From an uncultured Acidobacteriota bacterium (GTDB taxonomy: Bacteria; Acidobacteriota; Vicinamibacteria; Vicinamibacterales; 2-12-FULL-66-21): a stretch of 64,000 nt of DNA. The stretch spans positions 588,805 to 652,804 of the forward strand of contig CAVYZR010000006.1 in the NCBI GenBank assembly GCA_963773005.1, in the 5' to 3' direction. Of this stretch, positions 818 to 62,446 are shown piece by piece. The notes beneath the pieces are model-generated. The model searched no databases. It was not told the DNA's origin and was given only the letters and a program-made list of their open reading frames with translations. Position numbers and translations under genes: made by a program. Position 1 is the first letter of the stretch, and every line of letters starts with the position of its first letter.

Positions 818-3247
818 ATGAACCATCGCCGCATCAGTACCGCACTGAGTTCGCTCGTCACTTCCGGCGCCATGCTGTTGCTGGCCGCTGCGGGCGCCTT
901 GGCCGGGCAGGATGTTCCCATCGTTCAGCCGGGCGCACCGGGTCAGAAGACCACGAAGCTGACGGCGCCGCAGGCGGTGAAGCTCGCCGACACGCGCTAC
1001 ACCGCGGACGATGTCACGTTCATGCGGGACATGATCCATCACCATGACCAGGCCGTGCAGATGGCCGAAGCCGTGAAGGACCGCACCAACGTGCCCGAAC
1101 TGGTTGCGGTGGCCGGCCGGATCAACGCGTCGCAGGCTGACGAAATCGCCTTCATGCAGCATTGGCTCCGTGAACGCGGCGAGAGCGTGCCGGATGCGTC
1201 GATGCATCGCGGGATGGATATGAAGGGCACCATGGTCGGCATGGCCTCGCCCGCCGACATGGCCAGGCTCGCGACCTTGAAGGGCGCCGACTTCGACCGT
1301 CTTTTCCTGACCTTGATGATCGCCCATCACGACGGCGCGCTGAAGATGGTCGACGCCCTCGTGAATAGGCCCGGCAGCGCCTACGATCCAGTGTTGTTCC
1401 AATTCACCAGCGACGTGAAGAGCGGACAGAAAGCCGAGATCGACCGGATGAGCGCGCTCCTGGGCACACTCGCGACCGACCCCCGCGTGGCGCTTGCGGC
1501 CGGGTTCAAGGACGCCGGACAGGCGGCGAGCAATCTTGCGCTGGTCGCGACGCTGGGCAAACCCACCGGCTTCTTCGATCCGGCCAACGTCGCAGATTTG
1601 CCGCTACCCAAGCCAAAGAAGAAGACTGATGGCGCCAAGCCCGCCGCCGCCAACGGCCAGTCCAATGACGGCACCGAATGGAGTGACCGTTCCCCACTGC
1701 TCTCTTTCGCGCAGACCGACATGGCGTTTAGGGGCGATGTGCTGGTAACCGGCAATTACCACGGCTTCAATATCTACCGCCTTACCGATGCGAAAGCGCC
1801 AACCCTGCTCAGCTCGGTGGTCTGTCCAGGCGGACAGGGCGATGTCTCCATCGTGGGAAATCTCCTGATCATGTCGGTTGAACAGACACGCGGCCGCGTG
1901 GACTGCGGGCGTCAGGGCGTGATCGAGGATGTGAGCAAGGACCGTTTTCGCGGTCTGCGTATCTTCGACATTTCGGACCTCACAAGCCCCCAGCAGGTCG
2001 GCCAGGTGCAGACCTGCCGCGGATCGCACACCCATTCGGTGGTGTTCGAGGACAAGGACCGTATCGTCGTCTACAACTCCGGCACGGCCGGGGTCCGCAA
2101 GGGAGAGGAGTTGGCTGGCTGCGTCGGCGGAGTGCCGGGCGACAACCGCACTGCCCTTTTCCGCATCGATGTGATCGAAATCCCCAAGGCCGATCCGTCG
2201 AAGTCGCGCATCGTCGACAGCCCCGCCGTCTTCGCGGACGAAGCCACCGGGCGCCTCGCCGGATTGTGGATGGGCGGCCATCACGGTGACGGCACGCAGG
2301 AAACGAGCGAAACCGACCAATGCCACGACATCACGGTGTTCCCCACTCGCAAGCTTGCGGCTGGCGCCTGCTCGGGCAACGGGATCATCTTCGACATCTC
2401 AGACCCGCTGAAGCCGAAGCGGCTCGACGTGGTGACCGACAAGGGTTTTGCCTATTGGCATTCGGCGACCTTCAACAACGACGGCACGAAGGTGATCTTC
2501 ACCGACGAATGGGGCGGTGGTTCGCGCCCGCGCTGCCGGTCCTACGATCCTCGCAACTGGGGCGCCGATGCGATCTACGACATCGTCTCTAACAAGCTGA
2601 TCTATCGTGGCACCTACAAACTGCCCGCTGCGCAGACCGAGAATGAAAATTGCGTCGCGCACAACGGCTCGATCGTGCCGGTGCCGGGTCGCGATATCTT
2701 CGTGCAGGCGTGGTATCAGGGCGGCCTGTCGGTGATTGATTTCACCGACAGCACGAAGCCAACCGAGATCGCCTTTTTCGACCGCGGTCCAATCAGCGAC
2801 AAGGCCGAGGTCCTCGGCGGCTACTGGTCCACTTACTGGTACAACGGCCGGATCTACGGCACCGAAATCGCCCGTGGTTTGGACGTGCTGGAACTCTCGC
2901 CTAGCAAATATCTAACTGCGAGCGAAATTGCGGCGGCGAAACTGGCGAATCAAGGTGGCACCTTCAACCCGCAGCAGCAGTATCCGGTCAGTTGGCCCGA
3001 TGCGCCAGTCGTGGCGCGCGCCTATATCGACCAACTGCAGCGTGACGGCGGCTTCACCGCGGCCAACGTCGCGACACTTTCGGCCATGCTGGACAAGGCC
3101 CAGGCGATACTCGACGCCGGACTGAAGGACGCGGGCGTGGCCGCCGAGCTGCGAACCCATGCCGGGCATCTGGCCGGTGCTGCGGCCGGCACACGCAAGG
3201 CGATGCTGGCGAAGGCAATGGAAGCGATCGCCGCCAAGCTCAGCTGA
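818..3247 (+). CDS. secreted DUF305 + LVIVD-repeat beta-propeller fusion protein
   Basis: ATG at 818 follows GGGAGA (the ORF track starts at 776). Signal-like N-terminus. Two DUF305-type His motifs (FMRDMIHHHDQAVQMAE, FLTLMIAHHDGALKMV). The following ~550 aa are highly similar by eye to the 660-aa protein at 16904-18886 (VCPGGQGD, QTCRGSHTH, QCHDITVF, ENCVAHNGS). Confidence 0.85.
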   Translation: MNHRRISTALSSLVTSGAMLLLAAAGALAGQDVPIVQPGAPGQKTTKLTAPQAVKLADTRYTADDVTFMRDMIHHHDQAVQMAEAVKDRTNVPELVAVAGRINASQADEIAFMQHWLRERGESVPDASMHRGMDMKGTMVGMASPADMARLATLKGADFDRLFLTLMIAHHDGALKMVDALVNRPGSAYDPVLFQFTSDVKSGQKAEIDRMSALLGTLATDPRVALAAGFKDAGQAASNLALVATLGKPTGFFDPANVADLPLPKPKKKTDGAKPAAANGQSNDGTEWSDRSPLLSFAQTDMAFRGDVLVTGNYHGFNIYRLTDAKAPTLLSSVVCPGGQGDVSIVGNLLIMSVEQTRGRVDCGRQGVIEDVSKDRFRGLRIFDISDLTSPQQVGQVQTCRGSHTHSVVFEDKDRIVVYNSGTAGVRKGEELAGCVGGVPGDNRTALFRIDVIEIPKADPSKSRIVDSPAVFADEATGRLAGLWMGGHHGDGTQETSETDQCHDITVFPTRKLAAGACSGNGIIFDISDPLKPKRLDVVTDKGFAYWHSATFNNDGTKVIFTDEWGGGSRPRCRSYDPRNWGADAIYDIVSNKLIYRGTYKLPAAQTENENCVAHNGSIVPVPGRDIFVQAWYQGGLSVIDFTDSTKPTEIAFFDRGPISDKAEVLGGYWSTYWYNGRIYGTEIARGLDVLELSPSKYLTASEIAAAKLANQGGTFNPQQQYPVSWPDAPVVARAYIDQLQRDGGFTAANVATLSAMLDKAQAILDAGLKDAGVAAELRTHAGHLAGAAAGTRKAMLAKAMEAIAAKLS

Positions 3248-4136: not shown

Positions 4137-6479
4137 ATGGTTCGGATCGCTCGAATTCTCACATCTCTCCCGCTCCGCGTGGCTGGGTTCGTGATTCTGG
4201 CCGGCTCGGTCGCCTCGGCGCAGCCGCTGCTCACAGGCCGCGTGCGGGACGAGACCGGTGCGGCATTGCCGGGCGTACTCGTTGAACTCCGGTCGGGCAA
4301 TACCGCGGTCGGCCAGACGAATACGAACGATCGCGGCGAGTATCGGTTCGACGCCGCCCGTTCTGGACGGTTCGAACTCTCGTTCACGCTCGTGAACTTC
4401 GCGACGGTCCGGCGCCCGGTCACGATCGGCCCTGACGCACAGACGGTGGACGCGATTCTCTATCTCGTCCTCAGCGCAGACGTCACGGTGACTGGCAAGT
4501 CGACATTCACGAACCTCGCCGACGTACCCTCGCCGGAACAGGATCTGGTCGGGATCGCCCAATCCTCTAGTCAGGGCGCGGTCACCGCGCGGCAGCTCGA
4601 CACGCGCCCGATCATGCGGCCCGGCGAAGTCCTCGAAACCGTTCCGGGCGTCGTCATCAGCCAGCACAGCGGCGAGGGCAAGGCCAACCAATACTTTTTG
4701 CGCGGCTTCAACCTCGATCACGGCACTGACTTCGCAACGACGGTCGCGGGCATGCCGGTGAACATGCCGACGCACGGTCACGGCCACGGCTACTCCGATC
4801 TCAACTTCCTGATCCCGGAGCTCGCGAGCGGCGTTCAATTCTCAAAGGGCCCGTACTTCGCCGAGCACGGCGACTTTGCGACCGCTGGCACCGCCAACAT
4901 CAACTATACGAATACCCTCGCGCGTCCGATCGTTCGCGTCGGCGGCGGCAACGACGCCTTCGGACGCATGCTGCTCGCAGCAGCGCCGACTGTCGGCAGT
5001 GGCACACTCCTCGCCGCACTCGAGCTCGAGCACAGCGACGGCCCTTGGGAACAACCGGACGATCTGCGTAAGTTCAACGGGTTGATTCGCTATACGCGAG
5101 GCGATGGACGCAACGGCCTGTCGGCGACGCTCATGGGTTATCGCGGAACGTGGAACTCGACCGATCAGATCCCGACGCGCGCGGTGGACGACGGTCGCAT
5201 CGGCCGATTCGGCCTGGTCGATCCGACCGATGGTGGAAAGTCGTCGCGCTACAGCGCGTCGATCGAGTGGCAGCGCAGCAGCGGGAACGCCAGCACCACG
5301 CTCAGCGCCTACGGCCTCAAATACGACCTCGACCTGTTCTCGAACTTCACCTATTTCCTCGACGACCCCGAGAACGGCGATCAGTTCCAGCAGACCGATC
5401 ACCGGTTCGTGAGCGGGGCGCGCCTCACCCACCGACGCATCGGCCGGTGGCTGGATCGCCCGACGCAGAATACCGTCGGCGTCCAATTCAGGAACGACAA
5501 CATCGACGACATCGGCCTCTATCACACGCGCGAGCGTGAGCGGCTCGAGACGATCCGTCAGGATTCGGTGATCCAGACCAGTGCGGGTGCTTTCGCTCAG
5601 AACGAGACCGAGTGGACGCCGTGGCTGCGGACGCTCGCCGGCGTGCGCGTCGACGGGTATCGCTTCGATGTCACCGCCGGCATCACCGAGAACGGCGGCA
5701 CCGACTACGCAGAACTCGTCAGCCCGAAAGGCGGCGCGGTCTTTGGACCGTTCGCAAAGACCGAGGTCTACGTCAACGCCGGCCTCGGCTTTCACAGCAA
5801 CGACGCGCGCGGAGCGACCATCACCGTCGATCCGGTGACCGGCGAACCGGCCAGCCGCGTGACGCCGCTCGCGCGAGCGACTGGGGCGGAAATCGGCATC
5901 AGAACTGTACGCATCCCCAGGATGCAGATGACCGTCACGGCGTGGACTCTCGGGCTCGATTCCGAGCTCGTGTTCGTGGGCGACGCTGGAACAACAGCCC
6001 CCGGCCGCCCGAGCCGCCGCCAGGGGATCGAGTGGACGACGTACTACACGCCAAGGCCGTGGCTGATCTTCGACGCCGACCTCGCGCTCTCCAAGGGGCG
6101 GTTCACCGACGCCGATCCGGCAGGAGACCACATCCCCGGCGCCGTCGCCACGGTCGTGTCGGCCGGCGCAACCGTGGACAGCGTGCACAATGTGTTCGGC
6201 AGCGTCCGCTGGCGATACTTCGGCCCGCGCGCGCTCGTCGAGGACGACACCATCCGCTCGAAGGCGACGAGCCTCGTCAACCTCACCGCCGGATTCAAGT
6301 TCACGCCTTCACTGCGCGTCGCGCTCGAGGTGTTCAACCTCTTCAACGCAGCCGACAGCGACATCGACTATTTCTACCGGTCGCGTCTCCCAGGCGAGCC
6401 TGCCGGCGGTATCGACGATTTCCACATTCACCCTGCTGCGCCGCGGAGTGCACGGATCAACTTGATATTTGGATTCTGA
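4137..6479 (+). CDS. TonB-dependent receptor with N-terminal CarboxypepD_reg-like domain
   Basis: Signal peptide MVRIARILTSLPL...ASAQ (the ORF track starts at 4101). GRVRDETGAALPGVLVELRS module. Plug-like region VTARQLDTRPIMRPGEVLETVPGV. Long beta-barrel ending in the aromatic terminus INLIFGF. Confidence 0.85.
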   Translation: MVRIARILTSLPLRVAGFVILAGSVASAQPLLTGRVRDETGAALPGVLVELRSGNTAVGQTNTNDRGEYRFDAARSGRFELSFTLVNFATVRRPVTIGPDAQTVDAILYLVLSADVTVTGKSTFTNLADVPSPEQDLVGIAQSSSQGAVTARQLDTRPIMRPGEVLETVPGVVISQHSGEGKANQYFLRGFNLDHGTDFATTVAGMPVNMPTHGHGHGYSDLNFLIPELASGVQFSKGPYFAEHGDFATAGTANINYTNTLARPIVRVGGGNDAFGRMLLAAAPTVGSGTLLAALELEHSDGPWEQPDDLRKFNGLIRYTRGDGRNGLSATLMGYRGTWNSTDQIPTRAVDDGRIGRFGLVDPTDGGKSSRYSASIEWQRSSGNASTTLSAYGLKYDLDLFSNFTYFLDDPENGDQFQQTDHRFVSGARLTHRRIGRWLDRPTQNTVGVQFRNDNIDDIGLYHTRERERLETIRQDSVIQTSAGAFAQNETEWTPWLRTLAGVRVDGYRFDVTAGITENGGTDYAELVSPKGGAVFGPFAKTEVYVNAGLGFHSNDARGATITVDPVTGEPASRVTPLARATGAEIGIRTVRIPRMQMTVTAWTLGLDSELVFVGDAGTTAPGRPSRRQGIEWTTYYTPRPWLIFDADLALSKGRFTDADPAGDHIPGAVATVVSAGATVDSVHNVFGSVRWRYFGPRALVEDDTIRSKATSLVNLTAGFKFTPSLRVALEVFNLFNAADSDIDYFYRSRLPGEPAGGIDDFHIHPAAPRSARINLIFGF

Positions 6480-6480
6480 C

Positions 6481-6813
6481 GACGACTGACGACACACGAC
6501 AGTCGGGAGTCGGGGGTCGGAAGTCGGCAATCACAGTCGGCAGTCTGAGTCGGCAGTTCCAGTCTCATCCGGGGGACTTCGTCCCCCGGACCCCCTTACA
6601 CGCTCGCTCGCGGGGACCCCGACGCCCCGCTCCGCTCGCGTGGCTCACTCGCTACGCTCGTGCGCGCCACTAATGAGATGGCTTCTAGTCGCATCGCCTC
6701 CCCGCGCCCTGAAGGCGCTCGATACTGACTGAGACTGCCGACTCGGACTATCGACTCAGACTGTCGACGGTGACTCTCGACTCTCGACTCCCGATTCCCG
6801 ACTGCCGACTGTC
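6481..6813. repeat. composite intergenic element: GTCGGNN heptamer arms flanking an R1 core
   Basis: Left arm 6481-6565 is (GTCGGNN)n. Right arm 6721-6813 is the reverse-complement word (NNCCGAC)n. The R1 element (6569-6686) lies between the arms. Confidence 0.8.
6569..6686 (+). repeat. R1 element copy 1 (~118 nt GC-rich repeat)
   Basis: CCGGGGGACTTCGTCCCCCGG hairpin followed by ACCCCCTTACACGCTCGCTCGCGGGGACCCCGACGCCCCGCTCCGCTCGCGTGGCTC... Positions 6569-6646 are identical to 53026-53103. Confidence 0.85.
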
Positions 6814-6920
6814 TGTCCCTGTCTAGTCCCCAATCCATTCCCATCTCCCTCCCGTAGTACGAGTCGAACGCGCGGTGCGCGCCTCATCACAGGCCGGAAG
6901 AAATGAAAGGAAGGATTCTC

Positions 6921-8707
<1,787 letters not shown>

Positions 8708-13666: not shown

Positions 13667-13811
13667 GTTGGTTCAGGGTTCAAGGTTCAGGGTTCAAGGT
13701 TCAGGGTTCAAGGTTCGGGGTTCAAGGTTCGGGGTTTCGGGGTTCGGGAACGTGGAACCCGCGCCATGGACAATTTTGAACATTGAACTCTGGACCTTGA
13801 ACCATGAACCG
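13667..13811. repeat. GGTTCAR heptamer-armed imperfect hairpin
   Basis: About 11 tandem GGTTCAG/GGTTCAA/GGTTCGG units at 13667-13750. A partially complementary arm (GAACATTGAACTCTGGACCTTGAACCATGAACC) follows, ending at 13811. Confidence 0.75.
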
Positions 13812-16400: not shown

Positions 16401-16721
16401 CTAGATGAGTGGCTTCAACTCCCACTCGGGATCTTCGGCGAGCGCGCCGTACTCTTCCGCGGTAATCGAACGCTCGGCATACTGGCAGGAGAGCACGAAG
16501 AGCTCGCGGCTCTCGTGCCAATCCGCCCGCACGACCCTGGCGGGCAGCTTCCGGCCCGAGCGTGTCGTCAATTCGAGCGTTTCGTCGGGCTTCGGAATCG
16601 ACGGCACCTGAATCATCTTCCTGAACCGCACGTTCGCGTGGTCGATCGGATAGCCGTTCTCATCGAGGGCGCGCACCTTCATGTTCGGCACCCGCAAGCT
16701 GACTTCAACTTCCCTGGACAT
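16401..16721 (-). CDS. hypothetical protein
   Basis: 106-aa ORF with GC-rich third positions and sensible composition. No family recognised. Confidence 0.5.
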   Translation of the reverse strand: MSREVEVSLRVPNMKVRALDENGYPIDHANVRFRKMIQVPSIPKPDETLELTTRSGRKLPARVVRADWHESRELFVLSCQYAERSITAEEYGALAEDPEWELKPLI

Positions 16722-16751
16722 AGTGAAAATGTCTCGATTCTCTAATCTTAC

Positions 16752-16868
16752 CCGGGGGCTTCGCCCCCCGGAGCCCCCCTACTGGCTCGCTCGCGGGAAC
16801 CCCGCGCCCCACTCCGCTCGCCAGGCTCTCTCGCTACCGCTCGTTCGCGTTCTTTGTGAGATAGCTTC
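16752..16868 (+). repeat. R1 element copy 2 (diverged)
   Basis: CCGGGGGCTTCGCCCCCCGG hairpin followed by AGCCCCCCTACTGGCTCGCTCGCGGGAACCCCGCGCCCCACTCCGCTCGCCAGGCTCTCTCGCTACCGCTCGTTCGCG...GTGAGATAGCTTC. Collinear with copies 1 and 4. Confidence 0.75.
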
Positions 16869-16903
16869 GCGCGGCCGGGACAGTGGCCACATCATTATCA
16901 GAT

Positions 16904-18886
16904 CTACCGTAGACTGGCGGCCCGGCCCTTGAGCGTACTGGCGAGTGAGCGCAGACGTATCGCGTCGCGGCCGGTCGCCTTGGCGGCATCGCCTTCGAGG
17001 CCTTTCGCGAGCGCGTCGAGCTCGTCCAGCACTGCCGCGGCGCCATTGTCGCGCCCCGAGTGGAGCCGGTCAACGCGTTCGAGGGCAGCCGTAATGGCGC
17101 TCGCACGTTCCGGCTGGATGCCCTTGCTTCGCGTCAACTGGTCGATATACGCGCGTGCAACGACGGAACTCGCTGGCCAGACGACCTTCGGCTGCTGCTG
17201 CGGGTTGAACTCGGTCGCGCGGACGAGCATCGCCGCGTCGATCTCGTTCTGCGACAGGTGCTCGCTCGGCGTGAGCCTGAACACGTCAACGCCACGGGCC
17301 ATTTCTGTGCCGTAGATAAACCCGTTGTACCAGTAGGTCGACCAGTAGCCAGCGGTGATCAGGTTGATCGCATCAATCGGACCGCGGTCGAAGAACGCAA
17401 TTTCGACCGGCTTGGCTGAATCGGTGAAATCGAACACCGACACGCCGCCCTGATACCAAGCCTGCACCATGATGTCGCGGCCCGGGATCGGAATCAGCGA
17501 CCCGTTGTGCGCGACGCAGTTCTCCTGCTCGGTTTGCGGCGCCGGCATCTTGTAGTAGCCCCCGAACTCCAGCTTGCGGTCGACGATGTCGAAGACGGCG
17601 TCCGCGCCCCAGTTCGGAAGGTCGGTCGCGCGGCAGCGCGGGCGCGTGCCGCCTCCCCACTCATCGGTGAAGAGTACTTTCGAGCCGTCGTTATTGAACG
17701 TCGCCGAGTGCCAGTACGCGAAGTTCTTGTCCGTGACCTGGTCGAGCCGGACCGGCTTCACGGGATCCGAAATGTCGAGGAGGATGCCGTTTCCTGAGCA
17801 CGCGCCGGCGGCAAGGCCGACCTCAGGAAACACCGTGATGTCGTGGCACTGGTTCGTCACCGACGTTTTCTGCGTGCCCGGTCCGTGGTCGCCACCCGGC
17901 CAGAGGCCGGAGATAGCGCCGGTCGACGAATCGGCAAAGATCCGTGGGCGGCTGACGATACGGGCTTTCTCCGGGTTGGCGATCGGAATCTGGATGACGT
18001 CGATGCTGAAGAGCGCCGTGTTCGGGTCGTCTTTCGGCTCGGCGCCCGAGCAACCGGCGAGCTCGTCGGCGGACCGGACAGTGGCCGTGCCGGATCCATA
18101 GACGTAGAGATTGGCCTTGTCGTTCGGGTTCGCCACGAGGGTATGCGTGTGCGAGCCGCGGCACGTCTGCACCGCGGCGACCTGCTTCGGCTTCTTCACA
18201 TTTGTGATGTCGAAGACTCGGACGCCGCGAAAGCGAGCCGGGCTCACCGCGGCCTCGACGCCCTCGGTTCCGCAATCGATCCGGCCGCGGGTCTGCTCCA
18301 CGGACATGACGAGCAGGTTGCCGTGCACGGACAAATCGCCCTGTCCGCCCGGACAGACGATCGAGGCGAGCAACTTCGGCTTCTTCGGGTTCTCGAGATC
18401 GTAAATGTTGAACCCGTTGAAGTTGCCGATGAACAAGTGTTTGCCGCTGAACGCCAGGTCCGAATTCACGAAGTTCAAGCCGCCTCCGCCTGACGACGGC
18501 TTCGCCCCTGGCTTGGCATCTTTGTTTTCGCTCGGCTTCGCCTCTTTGCTTTCGCTCGGCTTGGCATCCTTGTTTTCACCCGGCTTGGGATCCGGCTTGT
18601 CTTCGGTCTCCGGTCCGGTGGGCTCCCCGGCCGGCTGTTTCGGATCGAAGAAGCCTGCGGGCTTCGGCAGGGTGCTGACCAGTTCGAGGTTGCGCGCGGC
18701 CTGACCGGCATCCTTCAAGCCCGGCTTGAGCCCGACGCGGGGATCGTTCGCGCTTGAGGCGGGTGCCGTCGCGGTAGGCGTCCGCTCCTGTCCACGCGCG
18801 CCGCCCCCAACCCCGCTCACAACCCCGCTCACAACAACGACGAGCGCTCCAACAACGCACAGCAACCGGGCCATCAGCGAACTCAT
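16904..18886 (-). CDS. secreted LVIVD-repeat beta-propeller protein
   Basis: Signal peptide and a low-complexity KP/E linker. The remaining ~550 aa are paralogous to the C-terminal part of 818-3247, with the same Cys/His motifs (VCPGGQGD, QTCRGSHTH, QCHDITVF, ENCVAHNGS). Confidence 0.85.
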   Translation of the reverse strand: MSSLMARLLCVVGALVVVVSGVVSGVGGGARGQERTPTATAPASSANDPRVGLKPGLKDAGQAARNLELVSTLPKPAGFFDPKQPAGEPTGPETEDKPDPKPGENKDAKPSESKEAKPSENKDAKPGAKPSSGGGGLNFVNSDLAFSGKHLFIGNFNGFNIYDLENPKKPKLLASIVCPGGQGDLSVHGNLLVMSVEQTRGRIDCGTEGVEAAVSPARFRGVRVFDITNVKKPKQVAAVQTCRGSHTHTLVANPNDKANLYVYGSGTATVRSADELAGCSGAEPKDDPNTALFSIDVIQIPIANPEKARIVSRPRIFADSSTGAISGLWPGGDHGPGTQKTSVTNQCHDITVFPEVGLAAGACSGNGILLDISDPVKPVRLDQVTDKNFAYWHSATFNNDGSKVLFTDEWGGGTRPRCRATDLPNWGADAVFDIVDRKLEFGGYYKMPAPQTEQENCVAHNGSLIPIPGRDIMVQAWYQGGVSVFDFTDSAKPVEIAFFDRGPIDAINLITAGYWSTYWYNGFIYGTEMARGVDVFRLTPSEHLSQNEIDAAMLVRATEFNPQQQPKVVWPASSVVARAYIDQLTRSKGIQPERASAITAALERVDRLHSGRDNGAAAVLDELDALAKGLEGDAAKATGRDAIRLRSLASTLKGRAASLR

Positions 18887-30531: not shown

Positions 30532-30607
30532 CGGTGGAACACCTCCGGCGTCCACCGAGAGCGGCTTTGCGCTTGTGCTGAACAAGGCTACGGCGAGAAC
30601 CTTCGCG

Positions 30608-30717
30608 TGGATCGCGAGCGAACGAGCGGCAGCGAATGAGCCACGCGAACGGAGCTAGCGTGGCGAAGCCGCGAGCGAGAGAGTGTGTAGGGGGGCCGGC
30701 GGGGCGAAGCCCCCCGG
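30608..30717 (-). repeat. R1 element copy 3 (reverse orientation, diverged)
   Basis: Reverse complement reads TCCGGGGGGCTTCGCCCCGCCGGCCCCCCTACACACTCTCTCGCTCGCGGCTTCGCC...CGCGTGGCTCATTCGCTGCCGCTCGTTCGC. Its hairpin begins 8 nt beyond the tRNA-Arg CCA end. Confidence 0.7.
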
Positions 30718-30725
30718 ACAAAATT

Positions 30726-30802
30726 TGGTGCGCCCTGCAAGACTCGAACTTGCGACCTCCTGGTTCGTAGCCAGACGCTCTATCCAACTGAGCTAAGGGC
30801 GC
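30726..30802 (-). tRNA. tRNA-Arg (anticodon ACG), CCA encoded
   Basis: Reverse complement is GCGCCCTTAGCTCAGTTGGATAGAGCGTCTGGCTACGAACCAGGAGGTCGCAAGTTCGAGTCTTGCAGGGCGCACCA. Hand-folded cloverleaf with anticodon loop CTACGAA. Confidence 0.9.
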
Positions 30803-35195: not shown

Positions 35196-35392
35196 TCAGT
35201 CGACTGTCGGGAGTCGGAAGTCGTCAGTCACAGTCGTCAATCTGAGTCGTCAGTCCCGAGTCGTCAGTCCCAGTCAGTCCGAGTCGGCAATCGAGTGTCG
35301 ACTGTCAACTCGCCCTGTCGACTGCCGACTCGGACCGTCGACTCAGACTGCCGACTGCGACTCCCGACTAACGATTCCCGACTACCGACTAT
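35196..35392. repeat. GTCGGNN/GTCGTCA heptamer-armed long hairpin
   Basis: The left half is rich in GAGTCGG/GTCGTCA words and the right half in CCGACT/CGACTC words. It spans from 1 nt after the nadA start to the stop of the mqn gene. Confidence 0.8.
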
Positions 35393-36537
35393 TGTAGTGC
35401 CCCGACGCCCGAGTCATCAGGCGCGTCGGGACCAGTAACCACGTTATACAGCGTGTCCCGTTCAACCGGCTCCCGTCCAGCCCCGCGGATGAGCCGGCGA
35501 ATCGCCGAGGTGCTCATGGACTCCGGCGTGCGCGCGCCGGCCATGTGGTAAATCTTCTCTTCCTGCACCGTCCCGTCGAGGTCGTCGACGCCGAACCACA
35601 AGGCCATCTGGGCTACTTCAACGCCCGTGGCGATCCAGAACGCCTTGACGTGCGGGATGTTGTCGAGCATCAACCGCGACACCGCATGCACCCGCAGCGT
35701 CTCGGTGGCTGTCGGCGCCGGCAGCTTCCGCATCTGGTTGTTGTCGGGGTGGAATGCCAGCGGGATGAATGCCTGAAGCCCACCGGTCTCGTCCTGGAGC
35801 GCGCGCGTCCGGAGCATGTGGTCGACGCGCTCGGCGATCGTCTCGATGTGGCCGTAAAGCATCGTGATGTTCGAGCGCAACCCGAGGCGATGGGCGATCC
35901 GGTGGATATCCAGGTAGCGCTCGGCGCCGCACTTGTCGTGGCAGATCTTCTGACGGACCCGCTCGGCGAACACTTCCGCGCCGCCACCGGGCAACGAATC
36001 GAGACCTGCGGCTTTGAGCTCTTCGAGCACTTGCTCGTCGGTCATGCGGTAGAGATCGGCAAAGAACGCGATCTCGACGGCGGTGAAACACTTCAAATGA
36101 ATCCCTGATCGAATCCGCTTGAAACCCCGCAGCAGCTCCAGGTAGTAGTCGAATGGCAGATCAGGGTGCAGGCCATTGACGACGTGAACCTCAGTGAGGG
36201 GTTGATGGGCACGCTGTCGCAGCTTGTCCCACGCCTCTTCGAGCGACATCGTGTACGACCCGTCGTCGCCTGGTTTCAGGCGGGCGAAGGCGCAGAACAG
36301 GCAGCTGGCGACACAGACGTTGGTCGCTTCGAGCCGGATGTTGAAGTTGTAATAGGTCCGCCCATCGTGCCGCTTTTCGCGTTCGCGATTGGCCAGCCAG
36401 CCGAGCGCCAGCGTGTCCGGACAGTTGAAGAGCGTCACGCCATCGTCGAAGGACAGGCGGACACCGGCCGCGAGTTTGTCGTCGATGCCGGCGAGGCCGA
36501 GCGAGGCGAGGCGACTCCGCATTGAACTAGACCACAC
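35389..36537 (-). CDS. radical-SAM menaquinone (futalosine pathway) enzyme, MqnE/MqnC family
   Basis: NVCVASCLFCAF radical-SAM cluster motif and overall family-typical sequence. The start may be MRSRL at 36522 rather than 36537. Confidence 0.8.
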   Translation of the reverse strand: MWSSSMRSRLASLGLAGIDDKLAAGVRLSFDDGVTLFNCPDTLALGWLANREREKRHDGRTYYNFNIRLEATNVCVASCLFCAFARLKPGDDGSYTMSLEEAWDKLRQRAHQPLTEVHVVNGLHPDLPFDYYLELLRGFKRIRSGIHLKCFTAVEIAFFADLYRMTDEQVLEELKAAGLDSLPGGGAEVFAERVRQKICHDKCGAERYLDIHRIAHRLGLRSNITMLYGHIETIAERVDHMLRTRALQDETGGLQAFIPLAFHPDNNQMRKLPAPTATETLRVHAVSRLMLDNIPHVKAFWIATGVEVAQMALWFGVDDLDGTVQEEKIYHMAGARTPESMSTSAIRRLIRGAGREPVERDTLYNVVTGPDAPDDSGVGALQ

Positions 36538-37099: not shown

Positions 37100-37300
37100 G
37101 GGCACAACTGACGTAGGAGCCGCGCCCAGTCGACGCGGCTCTGCCCGGCGAGCACGGGAAGTGGGTGCGAATCCCACGCGGTGCCGCCACTGTAAGCGGG
37201 GAGCGTCGTTTCCCTGTGGGGTCTGACCCCTACGCCACTGTGCTTTAGGGCATGGGAAGGCGAGGAAACGGCGCGTCGATCCGCAAGCCAGGATACCTGG
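37100..37300 (+). promoter_or_regulatory. cobalamin (B12) riboswitch
   Basis: GGGAAGTGGGTGCGAATCCCACGCGGTGCCGCCACTGTAA core, a second GCCACTGTGC...GGGAAGGCG (B12-box-like), and CAAGCCAGGATACCTGGCG. It lies directly upstream of a TonB receptor/ABC uptake operon. Boundaries are approximate. Confidence 0.8.
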
Positions 37301-37352: not shown

Positions 37353-39608
37353 GTGCATAATCACGGTCCGATCCTCGCTCTCCTGCTGACGTTCATCTTT
37401 GCGGCTAGACCGTGCCTTGCGGGGCCGGTCAGCGGTCAGGTCGTCGATCCTGACGGCCGCGGCGTTCCCGGCGCGGTCGTGCTGGTAACGGACGGCACGT
37501 CGGTGATCGCCCGCACGATGACGGTCTCGTCGGGACAATTCACGCTCAACGCCCCGGACAGTGGCGACTACGAAATTCGCATCGCGCTCGACGGGTTCCG
37601 AGCCAAGCCGATCCGAATCGCTGGCGCCGGCGCGGCCAGGGATCTTGGAACGATCGCGCTCGAGATCAGCGCCGTATCTGAATCGGTCGTCGTCTCGGCG
37701 GCGCAAGTTGAAATTCCGCAATCGTCGGCCGCCTCGAGCGTGACGATCATCACCCGCGACGACCTCGAGAAGCATCAAGTCGAGAGCGTCGCCGACGCCC
37801 TGCGGGCCGTGCCGGGACTGTCGGTGATCACCAACGGCGGCCGCGGCGCGGTGACGAGCGTGTTCCCGCGCGGCGGCGAATCGGACTATTCGCTCGTGAT
37901 CGTCGACGGCGTGCAGGCGAATGCGTTCGGCGGGGGCTACGATTTCGCGCATCTCCCAGTCGCGAACATCGAGCGGATCGAAGTCGTTCGTGGACCGCAG
38001 AGCGCGCTCTTTGGATCGAACGCGATCGGCTCGGTGATCCGCGTCGTCACCCGGCGGGGCGGCCAGCCTGACGCGTCCGCCTCGATCGAAGGCGGCGGCT
38101 ACGATACGTTCCGCGCGACCGCCGCCACCTCGGGCGCCGTCGGACCGTGGCACTGGGGCGCGGCGACCGAACGGTTGACCACGGCGAATTTCAACGGCTC
38201 GCGCACCGCGACCGGTGCCATCGTCGAGAATGACGACTACGAGCGGAGCTTCGCGGATCTGGCCGGCGGGTGGCGCAACAGCCAGGGCGCGGGGATTCAG
38301 GGAAGCCTGCGCTACGCCACCGACGAGCGCGGTGCTCCGGGGCCGTTCGGCGCGGACCCTGGCGGGACCTACGGCGGGATTGACCTCGTCGCGCGCGGCG
38401 TCAACGATCGCTGGCTGATGTCGATTGCTGGCGCCGCGACGGCGGGTCGCGCCCGAATCAGCGGCGAAGCAACGCACTCGCGGCTCGGCAGCGAGTTTGC
38501 GAGCCAGTTCGGCGATTCCGAGTCGTATACCCGGCGGACGACCGCGCGCTTTCTGGTAGATACGACCTTCGCGCGGGGCCTCGAAGCGTCGGCAGGCGCC
38601 GAACTGCTAGGTGAAAGCGCCGGCGGCACCTTTATCACTGCCACAGGCAATCAGCTCGTGCCCGTTGAGCGCGGTATCGCCGGGGTCTTCGGCGAGGTGC
38701 GGTGGAACCGAGCCGATCGACTTTTTCTGGCGGCAGGCCTCCGCGTCGACCGCATTACGCGTCAAGCTCTCGCCGGAGACGCCGACGCGTTCGCTCCACG
38801 GCCGCCGTTCGACAGCGACACGGTCGTCTCGGCAAATCCCAAGGTCGCGGCGGCGTGGGTCCTTGGCGCGACCGACGGCAACTTCACCAAGCTTCGGGGA
38901 ACAGCGGGCACCGGCATCCGCCCCCCCGACGCTTTTGAGCTCGCTTTCACCGACAACCCGTCGCTCGAGCCGGAGCGCAGCCGCAGCTTCGACGCAGGCG
39001 TCGAACAGGCGCTCTTCGGCGGGCGTGGCCTCGTCGAGGGCACCTTCTTCTTCAATAACTACGACGACCTGATTGTCGCGACGGGATCGTTCAGCGGCTC
39101 GAGCCAGTTTCGGACCGACAACATCTCGAATGCGCGCGCACAGGGCGTCGAAATTGCCGGCACGGTGCGGATGCCGCTGAATGCGCTCGGCGGCGGAAGC
39201 CTTCAGGTCCGCGTCGGCTACACGCGTCTCTCGACCGAAATCCTCGCCGTCGATCAGAGCGGGCTGGCCCCGGCCCCGTATGCAGTCGGTGACCGGTTGC
39301 TGCGGCGGCCCGATCACATGTTCTCAGCCGACGTGCTGCTCTCTGCCGGACCGCTCTCGGCGTTCCTCGACGGCGGGGCCCGCAGCACAGTCAGCGACGT
39401 CGACCCGAGCTTCGGCACGTTCGGCGGCGTCTACGAGGGACCCGGATACAGTGTTTGGAACGCCGGCGCATCGTGGGCGTTCTGGAACCGGCTGCAGATC
39501 TTCGGGCGCGTCACCAACCTCTTCAATCGCGACTACGAGGAAGCGCTGGGTTACCCTGCGCTCAGACGTGCCGGGATGGTGGGAGTGAGGGTTGCTGCGA
39601 GCCGCTGA
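37353..39608 (+). CDS. TonB-dependent receptor (BtuB-like by context) with CarboxypepD_reg domain
   Basis: GTG at 37353 follows AAGGAG. Signal peptide. GQVVDPDGRGVPGAVVLV module, plug (VTIITRDDLEKHQVESVADALRAVPGL) and barrel. Confidence 0.85.
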   Translation: MHNHGPILALLLTFIFAARPCLAGPVSGQVVDPDGRGVPGAVVLVTDGTSVIARTMTVSSGQFTLNAPDSGDYEIRIALDGFRAKPIRIAGAGAARDLGTIALEISAVSESVVVSAAQVEIPQSSAASSVTIITRDDLEKHQVESVADALRAVPGLSVITNGGRGAVTSVFPRGGESDYSLVIVDGVQANAFGGGYDFAHLPVANIERIEVVRGPQSALFGSNAIGSVIRVVTRRGGQPDASASIEGGGYDTFRATAATSGAVGPWHWGAATERLTTANFNGSRTATGAIVENDDYERSFADLAGGWRNSQGAGIQGSLRYATDERGAPGPFGADPGGTYGGIDLVARGVNDRWLMSIAGAATAGRARISGEATHSRLGSEFASQFGDSESYTRRTTARFLVDTTFARGLEASAGAELLGESAGGTFITATGNQLVPVERGIAGVFGEVRWNRADRLFLAAGLRVDRITRQALAGDADAFAPRPPFDSDTVVSANPKVAAAWVLGATDGNFTKLRGTAGTGIRPPDAFELAFTDNPSLEPERSRSFDAGVEQALFGGRGLVEGTFFFNNYDDLIVATGSFSGSSQFRTDNISNARAQGVEIAGTVRMPLNALGGGSLQVRVGYTRLSTEILAVDQSGLAPAPYAVGDRLLRRPDHMFSADVLLSAGPLSAFLDGGARSTVSDVDPSFGTFGGVYEGPGYSVWNAGASWAFWNRLQIFGRVTNLFNRDYEEALGYPALRRAGMVGVRVAASR

Positions 39609-43297: not shown

Positions 43298-44524
43298 ATG
43301 CAGCGTTCGCTCTCGGCACGGCCAGCCCGGTGCTCGCCATCATCTTCAGCGCGGGACCGCGTCTGGCTCAGCTCGCCGGGGCTGACCGCGTCCGCTGTCC
43401 TCCTTTTCGTGGTCGCCCTGAGCGCAGCGGCGTGCAGCCGACGCGCGACAACCGAGGGCGCGGCGCCAGCGCCAGCGGTCGTCCCCGTCACCGTCGCAAC
43501 GGTCAAGTCACTGGAGCAGCCGGTGACGATCGAAGCCACTGGAAGCTTCGAGGCCGACGAGTCGTCTGACGTCGCCCCGGATTCCTCAGGCCGCGTCGTC
43601 GCGACGCCGGTCGACGTCGGGCAGTTCGTCAAAGAAAAAGCGGTGCTCGTCCGGCTGCAGGGGATCGACGCCGGACTGCGGCTCGACGAAGCGCAGGCAG
43701 CGATCAGCCGCGCTGAAGCCAACCTCAAGCTCGCCGAGTCGCAGGACAAGCTGGCGCAGACGACGGCGCAGCGCTATGCGTCGCTCGTCGGGTCCGGCGA
43801 CGTCTCGAGTACTGTCGCCGACCAGGCAAAAACCGGCGCCGAGACCTCGGTTCAAAATGTCAACACTGCCCGCGCGTCGCTGGCGCAGGCGCGCGCACAG
43901 CTGGCGCTGGCCGAAAAAGCCGTCGAGGATGTCGCGATCGTCGCGCCGTTTTCAGGATTCATCAGCCAGCGTCGGGTGTCGCTCGGTGAGTACGTGCAGC
44001 CGTCGACGGCGGTCGTCACGCTCCTCAAGATCGACCCGCTTCGTCTGCAGCTGAATATTCCCGGCGTCCAGGCCGGGCTCGTCCGAATCGGTCAGTCGGT
44101 CAAGGCATCGGTCGACGCCTTCCCCGGGAAGTCCTTCACCGGCCGAATCACGGCAATCAACCCGGCCATCTCGGCCGAGTCGCGTTCATTCCGGGTCGAG
44201 GCTCGCGTGCCTAACCCCGACGCGCTGCTCAAACCCGGCATGTTCTCGGTCGCCACGATCGACCAGGAGAAGACGATCAAAACGATGCTCGTGCCGGCAC
44301 GCGCGGTGATCGAGGACGCGAACACTAATTCGTTCCGCGTGTTCGTCATCGACAACGATCGCAAGGCGCGGCTGCGGGTCGTCCAGCTCGCCGCGCGCGA
44401 GGTCGGCGAGAGCATTCGGATTGTCTCTGGCGTCCAGGAAGCGGACCGAGTCGCGACCTCCAATCTCGCCCAGCTCTACGATGGCGTCGAGGTCACTGTT
44501 TCGAAAGACGCCTCGGACGATTAG
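43298..44524 (+). CDS. RND efflux periplasmic adaptor (membrane fusion protein)
   Basis: Lipoprotein-like LSAAAC. Coiled-coil region. VEDVAIVAPFSGFISQRRVSLGEYV. Located upstream of the RND pump gene. Confidence 0.85.
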   Translation: MQRSLSARPARCSPSSSARDRVWLSSPGLTASAVLLFVVALSAAACSRRATTEGAAPAPAVVPVTVATVKSLEQPVTIEATGSFEADESSDVAPDSSGRVVATPVDVGQFVKEKAVLVRLQGIDAGLRLDEAQAAISRAEANLKLAESQDKLAQTTAQRYASLVGSGDVSSTVADQAKTGAETSVQNVNTARASLAQARAQLALAEKAVEDVAIVAPFSGFISQRRVSLGEYVQPSTAVVTLLKIDPLRLQLNIPGVQAGLVRIGQSVKASVDAFPGKSFTGRITAINPAISAESRSFRVEARVPNPDALLKPGMFSVATIDQEKTIKTMLVPARAVIEDANTNSFRVFVIDNDRKARLRVVQLAAREVGESIRIVSGVQEADRVATSNLAQLYDGVEVTVSKDASDD

Positions 44525-44597
44525 GGCCACGGATCACGGCCACGGATCACGGCCACGGATCACGGCCACGGATCACACGGATTACACGGATTTGTAT
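44525..44597. repeat. 13-nt tandem repeat (GGCCACGGATCAC)x4 plus ACGGATTACACGGATT
   Basis: A direct tandem array begins immediately after the adaptor gene stop. No inverted partner was seen. Confidence 0.85.
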
Positions 44598-51851: not shown

Positions 51852-53016
51852 TCAACGCACAGCCATCGCGCGTCGCAGGCTCTTGACGACGGTCGTGACC
51901 CGATCGATCGCGAAATCGATGTCGGCGTCGGAAGTGGAACGGCCGAGGCCGAACCTGATCGACGCGCCGGCCTGATCGCCGACGGCGCCGATGGACTGGA
52001 GGACGTGCGACGGCGCCTGACTGCCGGAACTGCACGCGGATCCTGTCGACACCGCGAGATCGCCAAGCGCCATCAGCAGCGATTCGCCCTCGATCTTGTC
52101 GAAACTGACGTGCAGGTTATGTGGCAGACGATGCTCGAGCGAGCCATTGACGCGAACGTCGTCGAGTTGGTGGCGCAGCCCGTCGAGCAGCCGATCGCGT
52201 AACGCGGCCAACCGCGCCGACTCGGTGGCCATCTCGGACCTGCAGATCGCCGCGGCGCGACCGAGCCCGACGATACCTGGAACGTTGAGCGTGCCCGAAC
52301 GCAGCCCGTGCTCGTGGCCACCGCCGTCAATCTGGCAGGTGAGCTGGATCCGTGGCTTCTTGCGCCGGATGTAGAGCCCGCCGGCGCCCTTCGGGCCGTA
52401 GGTACTTGTGCCCGGTCAGGGAGAGCAGGTCAATCCCCATCGCGTTGACGTCGAGCGGCACCTTGCCAGCCGCCTGCGCCGCATCGGTATGGAGTAACGC
52501 ACCGGCCGCGCCGGTGATCGCGCCGATCTCGGCGAGCGGCTGGAGGACGCCAATCTCGTTGTTGGCGGCCATGACCGAGACGAGCACGGTCTGGTCCGTC
52601 ATCGCCGCCCGCAGCTCGTCGAGACGGACGAAGCCGTCGCGGTCAACGCCCAGCCAGGTGACGCGCCAACCCTCGCGTTCGAGTCTCTTGAACGAATCGA
52701 GCACGGACTTGTGCTCGGTCACGACAGTGATGACGTGATTGCCGCGCTCACGGCAGGCATACGCCGCGCCTTTGATCGCGAGATTGTTCGACTCGGTGGC
52801 ACCGCTCGTGAAAACGACCTCGCCCGCCGTCGCGCCGATGAGCGACGCGACTTCCCCCCGGGCGCGGCTGACCGCCTCGTCGGCGTGCCACCCGAACGCG
52901 TGCTGGCGGCTCGCGGGATTCCCGAACTCCTCGGTGAAGTACGGCAGCATCGCCTCGAGGACGCGCGGATCGACCGGTGTGGTGGCGTGATAGTCGAGAT
53001 AAACGGGCTTCGGCAA
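51852..53016 (-). pseudogene. iscS: IscS/NifS-type cysteine desulfurase with single-base frameshift
   Basis: N-terminal 229 codons run up to the PLP-lysine region (SLTGHKY). After an extra base near 52399-52405 the other frame reads YGPKGAGGLYIRRKKPRIQLTCQIDGGGHEHGLRSGTLNVP...STGSACSS... to the stop at 51852. TTG start at 53016. Confidence 0.8.
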
Positions 53017-53025
53017 AAGTCTTAA

Positions 53026-53143
53026 CCGGGGGACTTCGTCCCCCGGACCCCCTTACACGCTCGCTCGCGGGGACCCCGACGCCCCGCTCCGCTCGCGTGG
53101 CTCTCTCGCTCCGCTCGTTCGCGACATTAGTGAGATGGCTTCT
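53026..53143 (+). repeat. R1 element copy 4
   Basis: 53026-53103 is identical to 6569-6646. The following 40 nt are about 80 percent similar by eye. It fills the spacer between iscS and the Rrf2 gene. Confidence 0.85.
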
Positions 53144-57090: not shown

Positions 57091-57108
57091 GTGTATCTAT
57101 GTCCAAAT

Positions 57109-57180
57109 CGGGGACTTCGTCCCCGGACCCCTTTCGGCGTCGCTCGCGTGGGCCCTTCGCCCCGCTCCGCTCCGCCGGGG
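57109..57180 (+). repeat. R1 element copy 5 (degenerate)
   Basis: CGGGGACTTCGTCCCCGGACCCCTTTCGGCGTCGCTCGCGTGGGCCCTTCGCCCCGCTCCGCTCCGCC, in the sufC-sufD spacer. Confidence 0.6.
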
Positions 57181-57202
57181 CGCGCCTCCGGCGCGCCGCA
57201 TG

Positions 57203-57961
<759 letters not shown>

Positions 57962-62443: not shown

Positions 62444-62446
62444 GAC

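Follow-up and report, generated by a model that had tools for sequence, protein, structure and literature searches.

The stretch of DNA analysed here (hereafter, the window) comprises 64,000 nucleotides of contig CAVYZR010000006.1 (assembly GCA_963773005.1) from an uncultured member of the Vicinamibacterales (Acidobacteriota), with a G+C content of 64%, and carries five copies of a short repeat that we call R1. R1 is a widespread family of small, non-coding repeats of soil Acidobacteriota (Vicinamibacterales) that has apparently gone undescribed so far. Its copies form a family with a covarying secondary structure, a strand asymmetry, a bias in orientation relative to the neighbouring genes, gain and loss of copies, and tandem arrays. 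The reading that we favour, with a probability of about 60%, is that R1 is a new mobile repeat resembling the REP, ERIC, MIRU and BOX elements, which the host tolerates and perhaps uses as a folded RNA spacer between cistrons.

R1 copies in the window and in other genomes

The repeat copies pointed out by a sequence-only reading of the window were present where it had placed them, within a few nucleotides, giving five significant copies in the 64 kb (c1 to c5; Table 1), of which c1–c4 are full length and c5 represents a shorter subtype. A search with nhmmer using a four-copy seed retrieved these five and no further match with E < 1 in the window, and a structure-aware covariance model (CM) of the core recovered the same five at 98, 98, 75, 70 and 54 bits (E 2e-16 to 2e-8). 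From dinucleotide shuffles, the hairpin pattern and the three-anchor pattern were each expected 0 times, and each was found 5 times; two of the five hairpin-pattern matches were reverse-strand self-matches of the palindrome. The identity over 78 nt between 6569–6646 and 53026–53103 was exact, with 112 of 118 positions matching overall. Recent copying of a dispersed family, which had been proposed on these grounds, is supported by this identity together with the gain and loss at orthologous sites described below.

To examine the family outside the window, one genome per GTDB species was scanned with a pattern fitting all five window copies, and at least 119 loci were listed (given here as L numbers). 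The pattern fixed the loop of the first hairpin (CTTCG) and two loop motifs of the middle hairpin, and the sample is ascertained through those. With nhmmer, at least 116 R1 copies were found in 83 of the 119 listed loci. Among the matches listed, the R1-carrying loci came from at least about 47 assemblies, which were metagenome-assembled genomes (MAGs) labelled Acidobacteriota or Vicinamibacterales, the sole exception being a 2-kb contig from a Thermoflexaceae bin. All other pattern matches (Burkholderia, Myxococcota and others) had no confirmation by nhmmer and were set aside as chance matches. A scan of viral contigs gave 7 pattern matches, none of which passed the covariance model, and hence no sign of carriage by phages. 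Homologues of the window's SufD in soil metagenomes were 73–98% identical to it, and the named ones belonged to Vicinamibacterales. All relatives compared in this study were MAGs, and the loci measured 8–22 kb each (0.9 Mb in total). In the collection of papers searched, no description of such a repeat in Vicinamibacteria or Acidobacteria was found.

Head-to-tail tandem arrays occurred at 14 of 100 sites among the matches listed and consisted of 2–4 units with a period of 97–113 nt (110 nt in L004, 105–113 nt in L012 and L048). Several arrays terminated in partial units, for example hp1 (the first hairpin) and the linker alone. Unit number also varied at a single orthologous site, where L047 has one unit and L099 has three. 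Adjacent copies in inverted orientation were seen only once (L089).

Anatomy and conservation of base pairing

On the strand used in the sequence-only reading (hereafter, the first-read strand), the R1 core begins with hp1, which has a 9-bp stem and a TTC loop and corresponds to the hairpin CCGGGGGAC TTC GTCCCCCGG reported before. It is followed by a linker, ACCCCC(T)TA, and by a middle hairpin with a 5-bp outer stem and a 6-bp inner stem (GCGGGG/CCCCGC) that enclose TCGCTC and TCCGCTC. In type A copies (c1–c4), the core is followed by GGCTCACTCGCTGCCGCTCGTTCGC and a variable end. Type B copies (c5 and about 40 copies elsewhere) end in a GGCGCGCC-NNN(N)-GGCGCGCC hairpin; c5, previously taken to be degenerate, belongs to this distinct and common subtype. 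The motif GAGATGGCTTCT, near which the repeat had been said to end, was found in three window copies only and not in the others. A whole unit measures 95–130 nt and contains two or three separate helices.

The base pairing of R1 is kept by compensatory changes. In an alignment of 62 distinct cores, 96.2% of the cells of the 22 model pairs were paired, compared to 85.5% in shuffles, none of which reached the observed value (0 of 500). Double-sided changes were found in 147 cells (48.5 expected), and the covariation score was 0.290 vs. 0.101 in shuffles and at most 0.066 in controls with slid partners. Compensatory change was seen in eight pairs. The outer stem alone occurred in at least nine Watson–Crick variants (CACGC/GCGTG, CTGGC/GCCAG, CGCCG/CGGCG, CGGCG/CGCCG, CGCGC/GCGCG, CACCG/CGGTG, CACAC/GTGTG, CTCAC/GTGAG and CACGG/CCGTG), of which the second, carried by c2, is compensatory relative to c1 and c4.

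The invariance of the internal-loop motifs is partly forced, because these motifs belonged to the search pattern. The loop is not immutable either, since the c5 orthologues in L121 and L122 carry indels within the middle hairpin: a 5-nt duplication of GAGCG in L122 (9909–9988) and an insertion of ~27 nt in L121 (9919–9988). On the reverse-complement (RC) strand, the internal loop GAGCGGA/GAGCGA allows a drawing in which two tandem G·A pairs surround two G-C pairs. On the same strand, GTAG, GTAA, GATG or GTTG stands 8–10 nt before hp1 with a G-run in between, and NTAG precedes the tail hairpin of type B in only about 13–15 of 41 copies. Motifs resembling CGCTC-NN-TCGC recur four times in direct orientation along type A copies. 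No reading frame is kept across the units, as the periods of the arrays are not multiples of three and the frame shifts from unit to unit; protein-coding and CRISPR readings of R1 were both ruled out on anatomy.

A second repeat, a palindrome of ~57 nt (CCGCCTTCGC..GCTTCGGCGAG..CTCGCCGAAGC..GCGAAGGCGG), was found beside or nested in R1 copies of other genomes (L001, L002, L004, L021, L036, L047, L048, L052, L065, L067, L075 and L109) and was not present in the window. It recurs at two positions of R1, one inside the 5′ arm of hp1 and the other immediately behind the GCGAGCG of the middle hairpin.

Searches against known RNA and DNA elements

Rfam 15, run on the whole window, returned only a cobalamin riboswitch and two tRNAs at gathering score. 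For R1 itself no family reached that score, so that the known non-coding RNA considered in the sequence-only reading did not turn up. The best sub-threshold match of R1 was to the Guanidine-II riboswitch (RF01068; 14.8 bits vs. a cut-off of 32, E 0.64). It lay on the strand that would mostly not be the mRNA and lacked the ACGR loops, the loops of R1 being TTC/GAA and 9 nt. With E values up to 10 allowed for one copy, the Guanidine-II, frameshift-element and snoRNA matches were regarded as noise from GC-rich hairpins. Scans for sigma-70 promoters and intrinsic terminators made no calls in any copy on either strand. The sequence after hp1 is ACCCCC on one strand; on the other it is TTAAGAC, ATGAGAC or a similar one, and neither strand has a U-tract. 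An integron attC identity was rejected as well: GTTRRRY-like sequences follow hp1 only in a few copies (L016, L098, L121 and L122) and not in c1–c4, and R1 copies are scattered between housekeeping genes, for example suf and tRNA genes.

Strand asymmetry and orientation

Three independent results point to the RC strand as the strand that is transcribed and folded. When the alignment was read on this strand, its non-Watson–Crick cells comprised 22 G·U and 7 A·C (p = 0.004). The predicted fold of the RC strand was more stable in all four full copies (−59.4 vs. −55.5, −65.9 vs. −56.4, −53.7 vs. −52.0 and −55.3 vs. −47.5 kcal/mol), an advantage of 2–9 kcal/mol. Where both flanking genes are co-directional, the RC strand is the one read at 40 sites and the first-read strand at 7 (p = 1e-6, each site counted once). 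A further 16 sites lie between convergent and 13 between divergent genes, and 83 of 100 sites have no overlap with a predicted open reading frame (ORF). Genes in the loci were called with a crude GC3-based finder, which recovered those window genes that have Pfam support. Since copies within a genome are not phylogenetically independent, the p-values should be taken as indicative only.

Neighbouring non-tandem copies had the same absolute orientation in only 6 of 13 cases, which indicates that orientation follows the genes and not the direction of replication; an orientation tied to replication, as expected from single-stranded DNA (ssDNA) transposition, was not supported. The orientation rule is obeyed by c2, c4 and c5, with c1 as an exception. 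The earlier observation that three copies are antisense to the genes on either side is correct for those at 16.7, 53.0 and 57.1 kb; the 6.6-kb copy is in sense orientation. What had looked like an oddity is instead the normal orientation of the family, and the informative strand is the reverse complement of the one first read.

Copies adjacent to tRNA genes reverse the rule for protein genes. In all five, the tRNA gene comes first and hp1 follows as the nearest part of R1, read in the tRNA sense, at a gap of 3–10 nt in four copies and of 86 nt in L111. One of them is c3, whose hp1 (30696–30717) starts 8 nt downstream of tRNA-Arg(acg) (30726–30802, minus strand, called by both ARAGORN and Rfam), in agreement with the earlier description. 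The terminator role suggested for this hairpin is a conjecture that the missing U-tract and the negative terminator scan do not support.

Gain and loss at orthologous sites

R1 has been gained and lost at orthologous sites, which were found empty, filled and half-deleted. Four loci orthologous to the suf region of the window (L120–L123; SufD 88–92% identical to that of the window) were found via SufD homologues. The spacer between sufC and sufD contains a type B element in the window, L121 and L122, and is empty in L120 (7 nt; TAG GCGACTC ATG) and L123 (13 nt). The spacer between the Rrf2 regulator and aminotransferase genes holds R1 in the window only, the element being absent in all four relatives. 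This copy, c4, spans the region from the stop codon (TAG; TGA in the relatives) to 9 nt before the start codon (TTG; ATG in the relatives). A second orthologue search, with a PAS histidine kinase as query, returned mostly paralogues and two useful loci. At the c2 site, L125 is empty and has an older hairpin (GGTCCGGCT...AGCCGGACC), L124 has the tail half of R1 inside this older hairpin, and the window has a whole R1, but the 3′ half of the older hairpin is lost. Copy c1 lies at the apex of a pair of inverted heptamer arrays (6491–6564 and 6740–6813); a paralogous pair of arrays at 35197–35395 is without R1.

The hairpins at the ends of type B, the insertion into hairpin apices and the weak TA, TAG or CTAG flanks hint at spread via ssDNA or by an IS630-like route, none of them consistently. 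The flanks of c5 can be parsed as a duplication of TA, TAG or CATG and those of c4 as TA; CTAG stands at both ends of the element in L066, and the flanks of type B copies are inconsistent. Complementarity between the termini was limited to 6–7 nt (TCTCAY/RTGAGA) in some type A copies, and no parent insertion sequence for R1 was found.

Position relative to start and stop codons

Of 68 copies, 26 had the end of hp1 at most 12 nt from the following gene's start codon, the mode being 7–9 nt; of 27 copies facing a convergent gene, 12 had it at most 12 nt from that gene's stop codon. A stop-like triplet usually stood just past hp1. A canonical Shine–Dalgarno (SD) sequence (AAGGAG, GGAGG) was found between hp1 and ATG only where the spacer was about 15 nt or longer. 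Read on the RC strand, linkers such as UAAGGGGGU and GGGGAG had predicted pairing energies of −7.9 to −12.5 kcal/mol with a generic anti-SD sequence, compared to −12.0 kcal/mol for a canonical SD and −3.0 kcal/mol for the opposite strand, and the linker was predicted to be mostly unpaired in c1 and c5. Because hp1 separates the linker from start codons ~7 nt beyond the stem, linker and hp1 could together form a split ribosome-binding site.

Coordinates and neighbouring features

The positions of the R1 copies and of the other repeats are collected in Table 1. Copy c1 lies between the genes for a TonB-dependent receptor (4179–6479) and a DUF4331 protein (6903–8537), both on the plus strand, and c2 between two minus-strand genes (16904–18886 and 16401–16721). 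The suf cluster is read from the minus strand in the order sufB, sufC, [c5], sufD, sufS, two small genes, the Rrf2 regulator gene, [c4] and the gene for a class-V aminotransferase. In this cluster, c5 fills the spacer between sufC (stop 57203–57205) and sufD (ATG 57090), and c4 fills the entire spacer between the stop codon TAG of the Rrf2 regulator gene (53144–53146) and the TTG start of the aminotransferase gene (53016).

Table 1. Positions of R1 copies, their sub-parts and other repeats. Strand is that of the folding model, i.e. the reverse complement of the first-read strand; the sub-parts of c1 are given on the plus strand. Positions refer to the window unless a locus is named.
Feature	Position	Strand	Details
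c1, type A	6559–6688	−	nhmmer E 6e-37; CM 97.6 bits at 6567–6644 minus
c1, hp1	6569–6589		
c1, linker	6590–6598		ACCCCCTTA (RC UAAGGGGGU)
c1, middle hairpin	6599–6642		outer CACGC/GCGTG, inner GCGGGG/CCCCGC
c1, tail	6643–6688		
c2, type A	16742–16870	−	hp1 16751–16771; nhmmer E 2e-32; CM 74.6 bits
c3, type A variant with GGC-GAA-GCC inner hairpin	30597–30727	+	nhmmer E 6e-28 (match on minus strand); CM 54.3 bits at 30640–30719 plus
c4, type A	53016–53144	−	hp1 53026–53046; nhmmer E 6e-39; CM 98.1 bits
c5, type B	57105–57202	−	hp1 57109–57125; tail hairpin GGCGCGCC TCC GGCGCGCC 57179–57197; nhmmer E 4e-5 at 57106–57172; CM 70.5 bits
Marginal fragment GAGCGAGCGGGGGTGGGGCCCCGCGAGCGC	8649–8678	+	middle hairpin only; CM 15.3 bits, E 0.35; no nhmmer match
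tRNA-adjacent copy, c3	30597–30727		Arg
tRNA-adjacent copy, L034	2249–2354		Gly
tRNA-adjacent copy, L106	3678–3785		Gly
tRNA-adjacent copy, L106	4646–4766		Cys
tRNA-adjacent copy, L111	2614–2732		Arg
Heptamer arrays	6491–6564/6740–6813		
Heptamer arrays	35197–35257/35320–35395		
Heptamer arrays	9711–9750/9781–9869		
Heptamer arrays	16311–16348/16365–16408		
Heptamer arrays	33276–33313/33912–33961		
Heptamer arrays	51718–51793/51802–51842		
Heptamer arrays	59410–59447/59454–59507		
Heptamer array	62440–62478		
Heptamer array	13670–13736		
Heptamer array	8524–8607		
Heptamer array	44519–44570		

A further copy suspected as a relic at 8612–8690 held up only as the marginal fragment of Table 1, which is the best sub-threshold covariance-model match in the window and covers the middle hairpin alone. 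A related GC-rich hairpin motif, (GCGAGCGAAGCGA...)GCGGGGGTGGGGCCCCGCGA, nearly identical to this supposed relic, stands directly upstream of sufC in L120–L123 (~9175–9235 in L120), where the spacers measure 197–271 nt; the window's own sufB–sufC spacer has only 2 nt.

Tandem heptamer arrays (AGTCGGN, AGCTGGN, GGCTCAG, GGTTCAG and GACAGAA, with one array of 13-mers) fill many spacers of the window. They often form inverted pairs, potential hairpins of 40–70 bp, and similar arrays flank R1 in L043, L014 and L069. These arrays are a separate repeat system of this lineage.

The class-V aminotransferase gene downstream of c4 (cysteine desulfurase-like; 51858–53016, minus strand) is frameshifted. 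Compared with the orthologue in L122, residues 1–210 are encoded at 53016–52387 and residues 202–386 at 52412–51858, and the gene is either a pseudogene or affected by an indel error of the assembly. Two large paralogous genes without Pfam domains (872–3247, plus strand, and 16904–18886, minus strand) are 71–76% identical over several segments, which appear as the inverted repeats I1–I3 and I5; one of the two is the upstream neighbour of c2. The cobalamin riboswitch lies at 37156–37297 on the plus strand (77.6 bits), ahead of a TonB-dependent receptor gene (37353–39608).

Interpretation and alternatives

At the DNA level, R1 is inserted into the short spacers where genes meet, multiplied there head-to-tail, partly deleted and lost again. 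On the favoured reading, the RC strand would become part of the mRNA in operons and 3′ untranslated regions and would fold into two or three very stable GC-rich hairpins, in the order tail hairpin, middle hairpin, G-rich linker (UAAGGGGGU or GGGGAG) and hp1 with a GAA loop. Selection would keep the helices and would disfavour the opposite orientation between co-directional genes. By analogy with REP and ERIC elements, the folded spacer would most likely block 3′-to-5′ exonucleases or serve as a processing site. The linker may act as an SD mimic that hp1 brings to within ~7–9 nt of the AUG, and we propose that R1 is tolerated beside start codons because of this mimicry. The rarity of the opposite orientation between co-directional genes could arise because the C-rich, anti-SD-like ACCCCCUUA would then enter the mRNA.

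A more far-reaching version, which we consider decidedly unlikely, is that R1 is a portable RNA cassette. Such a cassette would uncouple cistrons and protect the upstream one, its split ribosome-binding site would restart translation downstream, and its tandem-G·A loop would dock an RNA-binding protein of Acidobacteriota, so that gain and loss of the cassette would retune expression ratios in operons such as suf. In genes 25 and 38 of phage T4, an SD sequence is brought next to the AUG by a hairpin.

Several points weigh against the favoured reading. Transcription, RNA folding, an effect at the RNA level and SD mimicry, like the mode of spread, are matters that we infer from comparison of sequences, and the gene calls in the loci are heuristic. 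Of the co-directional sites, 7, including that of c1, have the element in the opposite orientation, and the five tRNA-adjacent copies are also oppositely oriented relative to the transcript. The strand asymmetry also fits a DNA intermediate, since no mismatch is more stable than G·T in hairpins of single-stranded DNA. Insertion into existing spacers of only 2–20 nt explains equally well why hp1 lies so near to start codons, and the same spacing to convergent stop codons indicates that insertion into such tiny spacers suffices. Among 23 hp1 hairpins that had not been picked via the pattern, 7 had both loop motifs, 5 had one and 11 had none. As regards mobility, flanking duplications were not consistent, c4 and c5 having TA or TAG and c2 having none, and R1 has no terminal inverted repeat longer than about 7 nt, in line with the earlier statement that no terminal inverted repeats were seen. 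No transposase was found between the inverted R1 pairs of L027, L098 and L022 (three pairs examined), again as noted before for the window; the ORFs between these pairs encode an M28 peptidase, a Usp-domain protein, an HTH protein, thiamine-phosphate synthase and RNase HII.

R1 might instead be a purely selfish, non-autonomous transposon of the MITE, REP or PATE kind, moved in trans and without any RNA role. This explanation overlaps with the one we favour and differs only in whether the RNA fold matters; we regard it as unlikely, though not far-fetched. The helices would then be needed as ssDNA hairpins, in which G·T wobbles are tolerated too, and the bias would reflect harm done by one orientation, as the C-rich first-read strand with its anti-SD-like ACCCCCUUA could occlude ribosome-binding sites or bring in Rho. 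Polymorphic presence, partial deletions and tandem arrays are as expected of such an element, as are the TA or TAG flanks of c4 and c5, the CTAG at both ends in L066, the position of c1 and c2 in the apex of pre-existing hairpins, and the nesting of the 57-nt palindrome at recurrent positions in R1 elsewhere. Type B even has a hairpin at each end, as do elements derived from IS200/IS605. However, neither a transposase nor a RAYT was seen in the 0.9 Mb of loci (with only three inverted pairs checked), a consistent target duplication and terminal inverted repeats beyond about 7 nt were lacking, and orientation follows the genes (6 neighbours the same, 7 opposite), unlike in strand-specific ssDNA transposition. 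A module for transcription termination or insulation, made of hp1 and the C-rich stretch and acting especially behind tRNA and convergent genes, would account for the shared order and sense of tRNA, gap and hp1 in 5 of 5 tRNA-adjacent copies, for the 16 sites between convergent genes and for the 9-bp GC-rich stem of hp1. We think it improbable, since hp1 is followed by no U-tract on either strand and the terminator scan made no call, arrays of up to 4 units are hard to explain, and most copies lie in operons (e.g. sufBC-[R1]-sufDS), where stopping would be harmful, and come and go among close relatives.

The strong covariation, the conserved internal loop, the few nucleotides between hp1 and many start codons and the weak likeness to the two-hairpin Guanidine-II aptamer could suggest that R1 is a small-RNA gene or a dedicated cis-regulatory RNA, such as a leader that works like a riboswitch or binds a protein and controls the gene downstream of hp1. 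The gene contexts largely refute this, and we rate it as highly improbable: the downstream genes are unrelated (sufD, the cysteine desulfurase-like gene, a peptidase, dehydrogenases and hypotheticals), orthologous genes manage without the element, and tandem arrays, convergent-gene sites and tRNA sites do not fit. Moreover, no promoter-like site was found in the R1 copies, and the Guanidine-II match is far below its cut-off and on the other strand. Just as remote, in our view, is a platform of double-stranded DNA whose palindromes and four to five direct GAGCG/CGCTC-type motifs would attract a regulatory or nucleoid-associated protein, in the way that IHF or gyrase is bound by BIMEs. The four direct recurrences of CGCTC-NN-TCGC-like motifs in type A would suit such binding, but the stems vary in sequence and yet stay paired, which argues for a folded single strand and not for a duplex motif, and neither the asymmetry of G·U over A·C nor the bias relative to transcription would be expected. 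Finally, metagenome assemblies can collapse or duplicate repeats, and at least one frameshifted gene lies beside c4, so the repeat or its 78-nt identity might be an artefact of assembly or chimerism. The chance of this is negligible: no sign of it was seen, c1 and c4 have unrelated flanks, every copy is set in unique sequence that shows synteny with independent assemblies, and dozens of other assemblies carry the family (at least about 47, obtained with different technologies).

Significance

Vicinamibacterales are among the most abundant soil bacteria, and to our knowledge almost nothing is known of their RNA biology and mobile DNA. R1 is frequent in them, with five copies in 64 kb and matches in at least about 47 species-level genomes. 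It will fragment short-read assemblies, it creates loci resembling variable-number tandem repeats that are usable for strain typing, and it alters spacers inside essential operons between close relatives. Since covariation and strand asymmetry are unusually clear for a repeat, R1 offers a direct test of RNA selection on REP-like elements, and the clean empty and filled sites in an essential operon, together with the orientation rule, make it a good test case, although the class of repeat is ordinary. Should the split ribosome-binding site prove true, R1 would represent a natural and repeatedly deployed way to express a gene behind a large structured insertion; should R1 be selfish DNA only, it would be one more repeat family of an ordinary kind.

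Comparison with known repeat families

REPs are short palindromes with a GTAG or CGTC tetranucleotide abutting one end of the stem; they are GC-rich, extragenic and mostly located downstream of ORFs, and G-T pairs in their stems suggest a role as RNA (PMC3733652). Their termini often supply a TAG stop codon, they form mosaics with other small repeats, and their abundance varies between relatives; they occur as single units of 20–40 bp, usually in inverted dimers, and are linked to RAYT transposases (PMC3733652). Like REPs and BIMEs, R1 is extragenic, multi-copy and made of GC-rich hairpins, and it shares with them the G-T pairs in the stems, the TAG stop codon at a terminus, the mosaics with other small repeats and the variable abundance. 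Unlike REPs, it is a composite of 95–130 nt in direct arrays, with hp1 alone (21 nt) fitting the size of a REP; its GTAG or GTAA sits 8–10 nt from hp1 and does not abut it, and no RAYT was seen in the loci examined. With MITEs, R1 shares its small size, its lack of coding capacity and its presence or absence at orthologous sites, but it has no terminal inverted repeats matching a parent insertion sequence.

MIRU, the mycobacterial interspersed repetitive units reportedly described by Supply et al. in 1997, are intercistronic, have one predominant orientation, form direct arrays of variable length and touch the flanking stop and start codons with their ends. Of all the families compared here, R1 behaves most like these, resembling them in its position within operons, its orientation (40 vs. 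7), its arrays (14 of 100 sites) and its varying copy number (1 in L047, 3 in L099). MIRU carry ORFs that overlap the flanking stop and start codons (translational coupling), whereas R1 has no ORF in the unit and is dominated by covarying hairpins; sequence and host are unrelated. ERIC elements, or IRU, of Enterobacteriaceae, said to have been covered by De Gregorio et al. in 2005, reportedly measure about 127 bp. They are found in transcribed regions, have a stable RNA structure and affect flanking genes in an orientation-dependent manner. R1 is of similar size, non-coding, intergenic or intra-operonic, and likewise present or absent at orthologous sites. An ERIC element, however, is one long imperfect palindrome with terminal inverted repeats and a TA duplication, in contrast to the two or three separate hairpins and head-to-tail arrays of R1, and there is no sequence similarity between the two, which belong to different phyla.

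The BOX elements of Streptococcus pneumoniae are, like R1, modular and intergenic, with a stable secondary structure and no transposase of their own, but differ from it in modules and sequence, and their host is AT-rich; we know of no orientation rule for BOX comparable to the 40:7 of R1. Correia elements (NEMIS) of Neisseria, of ~100–150 bp, are co-transcribed and processed as RNA hairpins, and their insertion alters the expression of neighbouring genes. Unlike R1, in which none of these features could be demonstrated, they have 26-bp terminal inverted repeats, a TA duplication and an IHF site. Because R1 fails a defining feature of each of these families, we file it as a new variant among the interspersed structured intergenic repeats, a kind that it fits, in a phylum from which none seems to have been described.

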